DNA from: an uncultured delta proteobacterium
Lineage (GTDB): Bacteria; Desulfobacterota; Binatia; UBA9968
DNA: 64,000 nt
Assembly: GCA_963755715.1 (NCBI GenBank)
Contig: CAVWLW010000024.1
Coordinates: 96,001-160,000 of the forward strand
Direction of reading: 5' to 3'
The notes beneath the pieces are model-generated. The model was not told the origin of the DNA. It worked only from the letters and a program-made list of their open reading frames with translations, and did not search any database. Position numbers and translations under genes: made by a program. This document shows, piece by piece, positions 52,822-59,393 of this stretch; the stretch's first letter is position 1; the number at the start of each line of letters is the position of its first letter.

Positions 52822-53034
52822 ATGGATGGATTTGGCAAGACGCTGATCTATCTCGGATTGCTGTTGGTGATCGTCGGAGTGATCTTTACACTAGCCGGCA
52901 AGGTGCCCTGGTTCGGACATCTGCCGGGCGACATTTCCATTCAAAAAGAACGCTTTACGTTCTATTTTCCGATCACCACTTGTATCGTGATCAGCATCAT
53001 CATTTCGCTTGTCCTTTATTTTTTTCGCAGGTAG
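52822..53034 (+). CDS. DUF2905 small membrane protein
   Basis: GHLPGDI...FYFPITTCI; usual position after ruvB. Confidence 0.88.
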   Translation: MDGFGKTLIYLGLLLVIVGVIFTLAGKVPWFGHLPGDISIQKERFTFYFPITTCIVISIIISLVLYFFRR

Positions 53035-53078
53035 AATTTTTTCAATCCGCTACGCCTCGAATCAGGGACCGAATCCGA

Positions 53079-55308
53079 ATGGAAGCAGCGAATCCGACAA
53101 AATTCGTCGAAGAAAGCCTCAAAGTCGAGGAGGCCAAACGGCGGCGCCGCGAAGGAATCGTCATTCTCATCACGGCTTTGATGGTCGCCGCGCTGATTTT
53201 TTTCGAAGTTCAACTGCCCGACGTCACACCGGAATATTCATTAGGAAGCAACATCGTTTTTTTTCTGCTGATCAACGTCAATATTATTTTGCTCGGCTTG
53301 CTGGTTTTTTTAGTCGTGCGCAACCTCGTCAAGCTGGTCGTCGAGCGCAGACGCCACATGCTGGGGGCCCGTCTGCAAGCGCGGCTGGTTTTGGCTTTTG
53401 TCGGACTTTCGCTCGTTCCCAGCGTATTACTTTTCATCATTGCCGGTGGTTTGCTGCGGCGCTCAGTGGATCGCTGGTTCGATTCTAAAGTCGAGAGCGC
53501 GCTGCAAGGTTCGTTGGAAATCGGTCAGACCTATTACCAAAATTCCGCCAACAATGCGCTTTTTTATGCGCGCCAGCTTAGCGATCAGGATCACCGCGGA
53601 AGGGCTCGTCGATCCGTCGCGACTTGCCGAGCTGAAAAAGTTCGTCGAAGCCAAGCAGCGCGAATACAACCTCGGCACGGTCGAGCTTTTTTCACCCGAC
53701 GGCCAGCCGTTCGTCGTCGCCTTCAATCAGCAAGTGCCGACGGGCGTCACGATTAAACCGGAAAGCGAGTTTCTGAACCGGGCGCTGCGCGGCCTCGAGG
53801 TGACGCGCACGCAAGCTTTCGGCGAGGGCGACGTGATTCGCGGCGGCGTACCGATTTACGCGCGCGACAAGCGTATTCTCGGCGTGGTCGTCGTCGATTA
53901 TTATGTGCCGAAAAGCATTTCGAAACGGGCGATTCAAATATCCCAGTCCTATGAACAATACAAATATTTGACGTTTCTAAAAGCGCCGGTCAAAAATAGC
54001 TACCTCCTGACCATGCTTTTGATCACGCTTGTGATCATTTTCGCGGCTACTTGGTGCGGCATCTATCTATCCAAAGGAATCACGGTGCCGATTCAAAAAC
54101 TCGCCGAGGGGACGCATCAGGTCGCCCTGGGAAACTGGGATTATAAAATCGAGGCGGGCGGCGACGACGAAATCGGCGTGTTGATGAATTCTTTCAATCA
54201 AATGACCGGAGATCTGAAGCAAATCAAGCTCGAGCTCGAACGGCGCGGCAAAGTGGTGCAAACCCTCATGGCGAATATCGCGGCCGGAGTGGTATCGATC
54301 GACCCGTCCGGCAAGGTTACGACCTGGAACAAAGCCGCCGAGCAGTTGCTCGGAGTGGCGGCGGAGCGTGCCTTGGGAAAATCCTACGCCGAGGTTTTTC
54401 GCGCCGAGCCCTTGCGCGGCATTCGCGAGATCGTCGACAGCGTCAAGGGCGGCGAGAGCATCGAGCGGGAAATCAAGCTTTCCCTACAAGAGCAATTGCG
54501 CAGCGTGGTGCTGAGCGCCGCGACGCTGCACGATGACGACGGCTCGATTCTCGGCATCATGCTTTTTCTCGAGGACATCACGCAGATTCAAAGAGTTCAG
54601 AGGATGGAGGCTTGGCGCGAGGTCGCTCGCCGTATCGCCCACGAAATTAAAAATCCCTTGACGCCGATCCAGTTGTCGGCGCAGCGCTTGCGCAAGCGCT
54701 ACGCGAATATCCTGGAAGAGGACGGCGGGATCTTGGACAAGTGCACGACGACGATCATCCAGCAGGTCGACGAGCTCAAGAACTTGGTCAACGAATTTTC
54801 CCAGTTCGCGCGCCTGCCGTCGGCGCGACCGATGCCCAATGACTTAAATCAGATCGTCAACGAAGCGCTGGTGCTTTTCAAGGAAGGACATCACGGCATC
54901 CAGTTTCAATTCGGCGCTGGAGATCTGCCGCCTGTGGAGCTCGACCGCGACCAGATGAAACGGGTGCTGATGAATCTGCTCGACAACGCGGTCGCCGCGG
55001 TCGAGGGGCGGGGGGAGATCAAGCTCGCGACCAGTTACGAGCGCGCCCGCGGCATGGTAACGCTGGAAGTGGCGGACAACGGCTGCGGCCTTGCGCCTGA
55101 ACTCAGAACAAAGATTTTCGAGCCCTATTTTTCTACCAAAGAAAACGGCACGGGTTTGGGATTGACGATTGTCAGCCAGATCGTTGAAGATCATCGCGGC
55201 TATATTCGCGCCTGGCCCAACGATCCGCAGGGAACTCGCATCACCATCGAGTTGCCGGCGCACCGCGACGCAGGGGTTCAGATTTTGGCGAAAAGTGCGG
55301 TACACTAG
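53079..55308 (+). CDS. ntrY: NtrY-like HAMP/PAS sensor histidine kinase (frameshift near 53590)
   Basis: SVDRWF, HAMP DEIGVLMNSFNQMT, AWREVARRIAHEIKNPLTPIQLSAQRL, GTGLGL. Confidence 0.88.
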
Positions 55309-55342
55309 GAAAAGTCGAGAGGACGGGGTGGAAGAACTGGCG

Positions 55343-55786
55343 ATGCCCAAAACAATTTTAGTGGTCGACGATGAGGACGGCGTGCGCGATTCGGTGCGCG
55401 AAGTCTTGAACGACGAAGGTTACCGGGTGGTCGACACGGCGGACGGCACCCGGGTCCTCGACATCATCAAAAGCGAACGGCCCGACCTCGTTCTGCTCGA
55501 CATCTGGATGCCGCAGATAGACGGTATCGGCTTGCTTAAAGAGATCAAGATCCAAGAGCCCGACATCAACGTCGTAATGGTTTCCGGTCACGGCAATATT
55601 CATACCGCCGTTACCGCGACCAAATTCGGCGCCTTCGATTTCATCGAGAAGCCGGTGTCCTTGGACGGGCTCTTGCTGACGGTGCAGCGCGCGCTGGGCG
55701 AACTGCCTCGCGCCACCGGGCCGGAGCAAAACGGCGGTCGAAGCCGGAAAGCGCGCTCGGCAAGGGCAACGGCTGCGCGCCGTTGA
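55343..55786 (+). CDS. NtrX-like receiver domain without output domain; probably the N-terminus of a REC-LpxC fusion
   Basis: ILVVDDE, LLDIWMP, SGHGNIHTAV, GAFDFIEKP; stop overlaps the lpxC frame (TTGA). Confidence 0.85.
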   Translation: MPKTILVVDDEDGVRDSVREVLNDEGYRVVDTADGTRVLDIIKSERPDLVLLDIWMPQIDGIGLLKEIKIQEPDINVVMVSGHGNIHTAVTATKFGAFDFIEKPVSLDGLLLTVQRALGELPRATGPEQNGGRSRKARSARATAARR

Positions 55787-56631
55787 GCGCCGCCGGTGCG
55801 CAAACGATCAAACAGCGAACTTTGAAAAAGAGCGTGGTGCTTTCCGGCCAGGGGCTTCATTCCGGGGTAAAAACCGGCTTGATTCTCCATCCGCTGCCGG
55901 CTAACAGCGGCATATTATTTACCGGGATTTCCGGCGACGTGACCGTTCCGGCCCATCTCGATTACGTCGGCTCGACGGGCTACGCGACTTCGTTGCGCTC
56001 GAAAGGATTTGCCGTCGGCACCGTTGAACACTTTCTCGCCGTCCTGCACAGCTACGGTGTCACCAATTTGCTCGCCAAGGTACAAAGTGAGGTGCCGATC
56101 ATGGATGGGTCGGCGGAAGAGTTTTGCCAGGCCCTCGAAGAGGCCGGCATCGAAGAGCAAGCCGGAGAGTGTTTGGAAATCGTCATTGATCGGCCTTACG
56201 AGGTCCGCGCTAAGGGTGAAGAGGCAATTCGCATCGAGCCCGCCGATACATTTTCCGTGCACTATGTTTTGCGCTATCCCGAACCGGTGGGCGAGCAGGA
56301 ACACCGCTACACCTATCTCGGTCCGGAGACGTTCAAGGCGGAGATCGCGCCAGCGCGGACCTTTGGTTTCTTGCGCGACATCGAAAAACTCCAGACCATG
56401 GGACTGGTCGGCGGCGGCAAGCTCAACAATTGCATCATCATCGGCGACGATAAGATCCTCAATACCGAGTTGCGCTTCGCCGACGAGTTCGCTCGCCACA
56501 AGATCCTCGATATCCTCGGCGATCTTTACCTGCTCGGGAGACCGATGCGAGGGGCGGTATCCGCCGTTATGACCGGGCATTCGGACAATATCGCTTTGTT
56601 GCGACAGATCCGCGAAGGCATGAACCTCTAA
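55783..56631 (+). CDS. lpxC: UDP-3-O-acyl-N-acetylglucosamine deacetylase
   Basis: KQRTLKK..GQGLHSG, TVEH, EVPIMDGS, APARTFGF, RHKILD.LGDLYLLG, GH. Confidence 0.95.
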   Translation: MSAAGAQTIKQRTLKKSVVLSGQGLHSGVKTGLILHPLPANSGILFTGISGDVTVPAHLDYVGSTGYATSLRSKGFAVGTVEHFLAVLHSYGVTNLLAKVQSEVPIMDGSAEEFCQALEEAGIEEQAGECLEIVIDRPYEVRAKGEEAIRIEPADTFSVHYVLRYPEPVGEQEHRYTYLGPETFKAEIAPARTFGFLRDIEKLQTMGLVGGGKLNNCIIIGDDKILNTELRFADEFARHKILDILGDLYLLGRPMRGAVSAVMTGHSDNIALLRQIREGMNL

Positions 56632-56700: not shown

Positions 56701-57150
56701 ATGGAATCCCAGGCCAATTTTCCACGACTTTTCACCGTCATCGAGGCGAACGACCTGCTGCCGAAGCTTCGACCGTTGGTCGAGCAGGTTCTCGAAAATA
56801 TTCGCCGTTTAAAGGGCGCCAGCGAATCGGTGATTCGCCGAGAGGGACTCGATCCGGAAGCGCCGAACCTGATGAATCGGCTGCGCGACGACGGCGAGAT
56901 CGCAAAGTTGATTGGCCAGGTAAAAGGCTGCGTCGATGAGATCAATGGCTATGGATGCATTTGTAAAGGCGTGGAGCAGGGATTGATCGACTTTCCTTGT
57001 CTGCTCGGCGCGGAAGTGGTCTTCCTCTGTTGGCAAATCGGCGAGCCCAGCATCGGTTATTGGCACCGAATCGAAGACGGCTTTGCCGGCCGCAAGCCTC
57101 TGCTGGACGACGAAACCTCAGATCCCAACGATAAAATGTCCTATCACTGA
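56701..57150 (+). CDS. DUF2203 family protein
   Basis: FTVIEANDLLP, GLIDFP, LCWQIGE, YWH..DGFAGRKPL. Confidence 0.88.
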   Translation: MESQANFPRLFTVIEANDLLPKLRPLVEQVLENIRRLKGASESVIRREGLDPEAPNLMNRLRDDGEIAKLIGQVKGCVDEINGYGCICKGVEQGLIDFPCLLGAEVVFLCWQIGEPSIGYWHRIEDGFAGRKPLLDDETSDPNDKMSYH

Positions 57151-58501: not shown

Positions 58502-59393
58502 ATGACAGCACAAGCGACAAGTAGTTTTGATTTAGACGAGTATTTACAAAGACAATGCGCCGTTGTCGACCATGCACTCGAACATTATCTGAGTCACTAT
58601 CCGGATGCGTCGCAGACTCTCTATCAGGCGATGCGCTATGGTATTTTGCCTGGCGGCAAGCGGATTCGTCCGATCCTGACCCTGGCCGCGGGTGAATGGT
58701 TGGGCGCGGCACAGGCGCATTTGTTGTCTTTTGCCTGCGCGGTCGAAATGACTCCTGTTGATTCGCTGATCCATGATGATTTGCCGGCCCTCGATGACGA
58801 TGACTTGCGCCGCGGTGCGCCGGCCGCCCACAAGGTTTTCGGTGAGGGGATGGCTTTGTTGGCAGGCGATGGTTTGTTAACCGAAGCTTTCCATCTTTTG
58901 TCGAGCGCCGAGGCGACGCGCGGCGCGACGCCGGAACTGGTCGTGCAAGCAATCACGAATTGGCGCGGGTGGGCGCTTAGGTTTGGTCGGCGGGTGGCGC
59001 TGACTTGGAAGCGAAAGAGAAAACCATCGATCTGGCCACGGTAGAGATGATCCAATTGCGGAAACCGGCGCGTTGATTCTCGCTGCGCTCAGGATCGGTG
59101 CCCAAGTGGCCAAAGCGACAAGCGCCGATTTGGCGTGGCTCTCGCGCTATCGCGAATATCTTGGCTTGGCATTTCAGATCGCCGACGATATCCTAGATAG
59201 CCACGGCGGGGAGTTGAGCACGGCAGCCGAGTGGAGCCACAAGGAGCCGAAGCAGGCGATCCATCGGTTGTTGGAATCGTCGTAGCTCGGGAGCGGCTCA
59301 GGGAGCTTTTGAGTTTACCGCTGGTTGAGCTTGAAAACATTTGGCGGCGGTCGGGCGATTCACATTGGCGGCGCATCTTAGAAAAGGAGAGTC
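58502..59393 (+). CDS. ispA: Polyprenyl (farnesyl) diphosphate synthase, heavily frameshifted; end approximate
   Basis: GGKRIRP, SLIHDDLPALDDDDLRRG, AFQIADDILD; directly upstream of dxs. Confidence 0.8.

Follow-up and report, generated by a model that had tools for sequence, protein, structure and literature searches.

In an uncultured soil bacterium of the class Binatia (Desulfobacterota), the gene directly behind ntrY encodes a single protein in which a response-regulator receiver domain (REC) of the NtrX type is joined to LpxC, the zinc deacetylase that carries out the committed step in making lipid A. The gene lies in a stretch of 64,000 nucleotides, here called the window (GenBank assembly GCA_963755715.1, contig CAVWLW010000024.1, positions 96,001 to 160,000 of the forward strand), and all positions below are those of the window. 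Receiver and lpxC are one gene, 55343-56631, and their split into two open reading frames (ORFs) in the assembly is a one-base assembly error. From the conserved residues, the gene order and the history of the family we infer a control of LpxC by phosphorylation, and the fusion points to a direct signalling switch on outer-membrane synthesis that appears to be undescribed. We consider it probable, at roughly 0.6, that the protein is a one-gene hybrid response regulator with NtrY as its cognate kinase, in which phosphorylation of D53 changes the activity of LpxC in the way known from CheB. The locus contains the following parts.

53079..55308, + strand: ntrY, gene for a membrane sensor histidine kinase (Pfam domains NtrY_N, HAMP, PAS, HisKA and HATPase_c)
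55309..55342, + strand: spacer of 34 nucleotides between the ntrY stop codon and the ATG of the receiver, with a ribosome-binding stretch of the GAGGA/GGTGG type
55343..55702, + strand: receiver (REC) domain of the NtrX type, residues 1-120
55703..55800, + strand: linker between receiver and LpxC, about 35 amino acids (aa), low-complexity, basic and predicted to be disordered (predicted local distance difference test score, pLDDT, below 50 at residues 123-150 of a 98%-identical protein)
55776..55777, + strand: site of the missing G, the one-base assembly deletion that splits the gene, located by alignment with the 98%-identical relative and with contigs of public sequencing runs
55784..55786, + strand: TGA that closes the receiver ORF in the shifted frame only, overlapping the TTG at 55783 as TTGA; an artefact of the deletion
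55801..56631, + strand: LpxC domain (UDP-3-O-acyl-GlcNAc deacetylase), from T-IKQRTLK to the stop codon, without a C-terminal tail

As assembled, the first ORF (55343-55786) starts with ATG, ends with the TGA at 55784-55786 and encodes 147 aa, of which aa 5-114 match the receiver family PF00072 (E 6.9e-32) and the last 30 or so are of low complexity, and the second (55783-56631) starts with TTG and encodes 282 aa that match the LpxC family PF03331 (E 7.8e-84, profile positions 1-266 of 268). A preliminary description of this DNA, made from the letters and their translations, had noted that the receiver passes through a low-complexity linker into lpxC, that the lpxC frame is open well upstream of a TTG lacking an evident ribosome-binding site, that ACG (Thr) occupies the usual position of the LpxC start, and that a single indel would fuse the two ORFs. 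All of this proved accurate: the low-complexity tail of about 30 residues is part of a linker of about 35 aa overall, the open stretch of the lpxC frame measures 363 aa, no AG-rich Shine-Dalgarno motif is present at the usual distance from the TTG, and the ACG directly precedes IKQRTLK. Compared with the 98%-identical DNA of the nearest relative, exactly one G is missing in GCTGC-GCGCC between 55776 and 55777, and with this G restored the receiver frame reads straight into LpxC. A G put in behind 55776 is also found in 4/4 public runs (three DNA runs from three studies and one RNA library), whereas the G-less reading of the window is supported by 0/4; this evidence consists of assembled contigs, not raw reads, with one bridging contig per run aligned to 55300-56300. 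The best-matching DNA run reaches 99.8% identity over 656 bases and may be the source sample of the window itself.

The preliminary description had further counted about 20 other genes with indels, a claim that was checked only locally: two of the seven genes covered by the loci of relatives map to two frames, namely REC-lpxC and ntrY. The 749-aa NtrY of a relative aligns with the latter in two pieces (residues 4-174 and 167-748, at 87-88% identity) on either side of a break at about 53560-53582, with NtrY_N on the first piece and HAMP, PAS, HisKA and HATPase_c on the second, and this break is probably a second assembly indel. With two of seven covered genes frame-broken, the assembly of the window is error-prone, and the split between receiver and lpxC is therefore best read as an artefact. 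Programmed frameshifting was also considered as a cause of the split and was dropped because the public-run contigs simply carry the extra base. It is very improbable that the deletion is real in this strain, which would then make a stand-alone receiver with a junk tail and an overlapping, translationally coupled LpxC started at the TTG. The assembly as given does read as two ORFs, the overlap of TTG 55783 with the TGA is a classic coupling arrangement, and four proteins of stand-alone LpxC length (283-292 aa) on the fused side of the tree described below could be secondary splits or truncated gene calls; but the G is carried by all four runs, including the one at 99.8%, the ntrY frame is broken 2 kb upstream as well, no Shine-Dalgarno motif stands before the TTG, and every one of the 27 inspected relatives is fused.

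These relatives belong to a set of 30 genomes drawn from the same genus and order, all 30 of which have an LpxC match. The receiver-linker-LpxC frame is unbroken in 27/27 inspected genomes of the order (19 and 8 further ones; G017, G025 and G030 were left out, and the 27 include the unpublished genome G005, on which no claim depends by itself), with complete fused proteins of 428-465 aa, three others being cut by contig ends, and a kinase-sized ORF of about 750 aa lies upstream of the fused gene in all eight relatives whose upstream DNA was fetched. Where the preliminary description had allowed for two separate ORFs in relatives and accurate sequence, one ORF was found, and a full-length ntrX between ntrY and lpxC occurs in no relative of the order. 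In one related genus the frames around lpxC stay open for 575-633 aa and could be mistaken for longer fusions; these were rejected as GC-rich upstream read-through, the real proteins measuring 445-465 aa. Wherever the flank suffices, the Binatia loci, which come from public metagenome-assembled genomes (MAGs) mostly titled Candidatus Binatia, keep the order RuvA-RuvB-DUF2905-NtrY-[REC-LpxC]-DUF2203-QueG. When a protein database was searched with the intact relative, 7905 of the 8000 proteins scored reached E <= 1e-10, and the best 120 of the 7905 all contain both PF03331 and PF00072, measure 415-449 aa and are annotated as LpxC only. The structural core of the preliminary description, one protein of receiver and LpxC behind NtrY, is thus borne out by the run contigs, by the relatives and by thousands of database proteins that unite PF00072 and PF03331.

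The genome (7.4 Mb, 93.6% complete) yields a single match to LpxC (PF03331), which is the fused gene, and a single match to NtrY_N, which is the ntrY of the window. Apart from the receiver of the fused gene, the best of its 92 receiver matches is 46% identical, and none of its 36 sigma-54 AAA+ matches is located at the fused locus. The check for a further lpxC or ntrX, proposed with the first description, returned no second lpxC and no closer NtrX-like receiver. With one LpxC, one NtrY and no closer receiver, the fused protein would be the only LpxC of the cell and at the same time the only NtrX-like partner of its only NtrY.

The receiver covers positions 1-110 of the 111 of the PF00072 profile, and its model shows the (beta-alpha)5 pattern. 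As first described, the phospho-acceptor pocket is kept in the window, with D9/D10, D53 in LLDIWMP (codon 55499-55501), S81 (55583-55585) and K103 in IEKP (55649-55651), and the receiver ORF has neither the sigma-54 AAA+ domain (no PF00158 match in Pfam) nor the DNA-binding domain (no PF02954 match). In an alignment of 58 fused proteins that are 31-98% identical, the receiver columns D10, W55, D60-G61, S81 and E102-K103-P104 are invariant, as are E229-H230, H386-K387, D390, D394 and H413 of LpxC, while D9 and D53 of the receiver and T340 of LpxC are kept in at least 90% of the sequences; a second alignment of 39 sequences gave the same conserved set in both domains. Because residues of receiver and LpxC alike are conserved over these 58 proteins, neither domain appears to be a relic. 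The nearest unfused relatives of the receiver (55-58% identity) are proteins of the REC-Sigma54_activat-AAA_lid-HTH_8 type encoded directly behind NtrY kinases, and its best matches among solved structures are 4d6x (2e-29) and 5m7n (1.2e-28), which we take to be the receivers of Brucella NtrX, with NtrC-family receivers following from 7e-23. By these relationships the receiver is NtrX-derived. Three database proteins were also seen that consist of tandem receivers, six in 1121 aa, four in 582 aa and three in 428 aa.

The LpxC domain is likewise complete. It matches solved LpxC at E 2.8e-53, and the motifs TVEH, ARTFGF, HKILD, GD and TGH are all present in the window, as had been stated before for the zinc and catalytic motifs. 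The Glu, His, Thr, Lys and Asp residues with zinc-ligand or catalytic roles, familiar from work on the E. coli and P. aeruginosa enzymes, are encoded at 56026-56031 (E-H), 56359-56361 (T), 56497-56502 (H-K), 56509-56511 and 56521-56523 (both D) and 56578-56580 (H). Since the catalytic residues are invariant and the genome has no other LpxC, the fused protein, judged by its sequence, should be the working LpxC of the cell. No match to PF07977, the FabA/FabZ dehydratase family, was found in the fused protein, and the chain ends 1-4 residues after the LpxC domain.

Two AlphaFold2 models of fused proteins were considered. The 98%-identical intact protein (429 aa) has a mean pLDDT of 87.4 and a predicted template modelling score (pTM) of 0.85, with only the linker, residues 123-150, below 50, and a 40%-identical short form (419 aa) has a pLDDT of 92.6 and a pTM of 0.87. 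As the LpxC domain makes up about 0.65 of the chain in both proteins, pTM values of 0.85 and 0.87 exceed what this domain alone could give, and this arithmetic, made from the pTM alone, suggests that the receiver is placed with confidence against LpxC. A complex prediction with receiver (residues 1-122) and LpxC (151-429) as separate chains, run without controls, gave a score of 0.02 (mark 0.32) and counts neither for nor against such packing.

The family to which this protein belongs was collected by a profile-free search of 1.84 billion representatives, from which the best 150 matches were taken, 32 of them examined with Pfam and all 150 by domain mapping. Among these 150 are 22 complete short REC-LpxC forms including the query (367-483 aa, one of them cut at the N-terminus), in which the linker measures 23-68 aa in the proteins other than the query. 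The same set contains 15 long forms of 650-736 aa with the domains REC, Sigma54_activat, AAA_lid and LpxC, two intermediate forms, one with a weak HTH_8 remnant, four N-truncated AAA-LpxC forms, and fragments. Of the 15 long forms, 13 retain Walker A and none (0/15) has the DE of Walker B, GAFTGA or the Arg finger, which argues that their AAA+ module is decayed.

A tree was calculated from 102 LpxC domains with a quick IQ-TREE search, after removal of 49 of 151 rows in which no single near-full-length LpxC domain was present; the tree is unrooted, and its rows are the best scorers to the fused query, so the sample is biased towards the fused clade. One branch with 100% support in the Shimodaira-Hasegawa-like approximate likelihood ratio test (SH-aLRT) has 49 rows on one side, namely all 45 fused or N-extended ones (22 short, 15 long, 2 intermediate, 4 AAA-LpxC and 2 N-extended) and the four of stand-alone LpxC length mentioned before, and on its other side 47 ordinary LpxCs, five LpxC-FabZ fusions and one N-extended row. 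On the evidence of this tree, the short and the long fusions are shown to share a common origin. The short forms are scattered inside the fused group, with at least five changes forced by the starred branches, and the two intermediate forms each stand beside a long form (support 100 and 91). By parsimony, which on an unrooted tree has to supply the direction, the pattern is consistent with LpxC having been fused once and the AAA+ module having been lost several times afterwards.

The phylum was also sampled evenly, with 150 genomes. An LpxC of the fused clade is present in 36 of them (best E up to 2.7e-88); 20 of these align with the query over its full length, open frames of 690-837 aa occur in 11, and 5 have short forms whose receiver was scored separately, three of which were checked with Pfam and found to be 453-461 aa long with no adjacent kinase. 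All four sampled genomes of the class of the window's genome are fused, and the remaining 114 genomes of the sample have ordinary LpxC only, at 33-43% identity. Beyond this sample, fused genes occur in a MAG titled Bdellovibrionota (450 aa, no adjacent kinase) and in one titled Deltaproteobacteria, there behind NtrY, and an atlas cluster of 381 long-form members is labelled most often as Nitrospinota; the taxa of the database fusions are those of record titles and of this one atlas label. A contig with very low coverage from an Acidobacteriota MAG has an N-extended LpxC ORF and, in another frame, a receiver ORF; a sequencing error may have broken the same fusion there.

In genomes of the phylum that have no fusion, the same genes can be neighbors. 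Among the 114 unfused genomes, lpxC lies 2.2-3.5 kb 5' of a receiver of the NtrX type, with strand and contig shared, in at least 27 that represent 16 families, a count made by hand cross-reference of LpxC and receiver coordinates among the best 150 rows each and with many short contigs. All five of these loci that were opened with Pfam have the order lpxC-(DUF4390)-NtrY-full NtrX with a strong Sigma54_activat match, DUF4390 being present in three of the five. A functional link between such regulators and lpxC has been reported: in Desulfovibrio vulgaris lpxC is the single target of the sigma-54 regulator DVU2934, and in S. fumaroxidans lpxC lies directly upstream of an operon orthologous to that of DVU2934 (PMC3333781). 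Two further papers state that the loss of NtrYX in R. sphaeroides raises lpxC mRNA 8.8-fold and also raises lipopolysaccharide (PMC7240162), and that NtrYX inhibits lpxC transcription in two alphaproteobacteria (a 2025 review, PMC12444477). Full-text literature searches, which do not extend to subscription-only papers, gave no description of a REC-LpxC fusion, and in the same 2025 review of lipid A regulation the words 'fused', 'fusion', 'receiver' and 'response regulator' do not occur. The history of the fused gene could have begun with an lpxC-ntrY-ntrX cluster in which NtrX regulated lpxC, continued with the fusion of LpxC in place of the DNA-binding domain of NtrX, and ended with the decay and then the repeated loss of the AAA+ module, giving the short form of the Binatia.

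As a mechanism for the hybrid response regulator, we propose that NtrY responds to a cue from the envelope or from redox state by phosphorylating Asp53. The unphosphorylated receiver would pack against the LpxC domain, and phosphorylation would alter this packing or the oligomeric state and thereby change the deacetylase activity, so that the flux into lipid A would be set directly by a two-component signal, as in CheB. We lean towards phosphorylation being activating, since the ancestral, unfused regulators encoded beside lpxC were activators of the sigma-54 type.

The main competing explanation, which we consider unlikely, is that the receiver does not switch catalysis at all and instead docks LpxC onto the membrane protein NtrY or serves as an oligomerization handle, or that its phosphorylation sets only the rate of proteolysis. 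LpxC works at the membrane surface, which would suit a docking role. At least 20 aa follow the LpxC domain in 0/49 members of the fused clade (median 4) vs 30/48 other LpxCs (median 26.5; FabZ fusions excluded), and as the FtsH degron of E. coli LpxC lies in the C-terminal tail (PMC12444477), stability control may have moved elsewhere in the fused clade. In addition, no LapB equivalog over the cut-off was found in the genome (best 46.9 bits vs 363), but since E. coli is the only one of 14 control genomes in which the LapB model exceeds this cut-off, the missing match says little. PF18073, the LapB zinc ribbon, was tried as a marker of LapB and proved useless, as it matched only RadA here and is present in 10 of the 14 control genomes. 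Conservation of the whole phospho-acceptor pocket over 31-98% identity argues for phosphorylation chemistry and thus against a mere dock, and the high pTM of two distant forms suggests intramolecular packing over a free tether.

A reversed flow of information, in which the LpxC domain would sense the pool of lipid A precursors and tune the receiver, which would then act as a phosphate sink or feedback element for NtrY, appears far-fetched. Single-domain and hybrid receivers that act as phosphate sinks are known, and a genome with 92 receiver and 36 sigma-54 AAA+ matches would offer such a sink its surroundings; but there is no other NtrX-like receiver for NtrY to serve (the next best being 46% identical), and the catalytic residues are invariant in what is the only LpxC of the genome.

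Several points weigh against phosphorylation-controlled catalysis by the hybrid protein, or limit its reach. The assembled sequence itself holds two ORFs whose TTGA overlap would be feasible for coupled genes were the deletion real in this strain. The sign of the control is a guess: data from Alphaproteobacteria point to repression of lpxC and those from D. vulgaris to activation. One genome of the phylum sample, G062, carries a receiver-LpxC fusion (438 aa, no adjacent kinase) in addition to an ordinary LpxC, so the fusion need not be the housekeeping enzyme in some lineages. Finally, the kinase is absent beside several fused genes elsewhere (loci L055, L090, L091 and L093), and an adjacent NtrY is therefore not universal for the fused family. 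For the clade as a whole, that is Binatia, their relatives in the phylum and, by the atlas label, Nitrospinota, we see about even chances that a built-in phosphorylation switch on LpxC has replaced the proteolytic or transcriptional control of lipid A, NtrX having captured its own target enzyme and NtrY acting on it within seconds.

Among the other features of the region, one gene adjoins the fused gene on its 3' side.

56701..57150, + strand: DUF2203 gene directly 3' of the fused gene (PF09969, E 6.9e-32), its position kept in Binatia loci

In most Binatia loci with enough flank, DUF2203 follows about 50-310 nucleotides 3' of the fused gene; it could be part of the same operon, but might also lie outside the system. 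The 34-nucleotide spacer between ntrY and the receiver (55309..55342) showed no terminator-like site. A weak sigma-70-like promoter match (9/12) was seen at 53009-53037, just 5' of the ntrY start, and three sigma-70-like sites were found in the region vs 2.0 expected by chance. Further downstream, an ORF at 58502-59044 that resembles a polyprenyl synthase on reading its translation has an odd basic tail after 180 aa and looks frame-broken too.

Lipopolysaccharide synthesis is controlled at LpxC, which is also a major target of antibiotics, and the known controls of LpxC are proteolysis through FtsH/LapB, other protein partners and transcription. A receiver built into LpxC would be a new, direct mode of control and at the same time a new class of two-component output. 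Taken with the conserved lpxC-ntrY-ntrX cluster, the fusion serves as a 'Rosetta stone' and argues that the long-puzzling NtrYX system would at its core regulate lipid A and outer-membrane homeostasis. The fused protein is small and soluble-looking, and it could be examined in vitro.

Response regulators with an enzyme as output are well known, such as CheB, PleD and WspR (REC-GGDEF) and RpfG (REC-HD-GYP). The fused protein has the layout of CheB, with the receiver at the N-terminus, a flexible linker and the catalytic domain at the C-terminus, and the mechanism proposed here, a receiver packed on the enzyme and an activity changed by phosphorylation, would be that of CheB. Its output, however, would be no signalling enzyme but a zinc deacetylase from an essential pathway of biosynthesis. 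As a fusion of LpxC to another domain it resembles LpxC-FabZ, with five examples among the database matches, which differ in that the added domain is C-terminal and metabolic (a FabA-like dehydratase) and in that they group with the ordinary LpxCs, apart from the receiver-fused clade. Like FtsH/LapB (YciM) of E. coli, the proposed switch would act after translation on LpxC and hence on the committed step, but E. coli degrades the enzyme by way of a C-terminal degron, and the fused clade has no C-terminal tail. A precedent for a two-component system dedicated to lpxC comes from a related bacterial group, the kinase DVU2931 and the regulator DVU2934 of D. vulgaris (PMC3333781), where the control is transcriptional and regulator and enzyme are separate proteins. 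NtrY/NtrX of the Alphaproteobacteria, finally, has the same kinase architecture and the receivers closest to ours, and it has been tied to the envelope and to lpxC expression (PMC7240162, PMC12444477). NtrX is a DNA-binding REC-AAA+-HTH (helix-turn-helix) protein, whereas here AAA+ and HTH are gone and the output is LpxC itself, so that the control would be post-translational and specific instead of transcriptional and pleiotropic.

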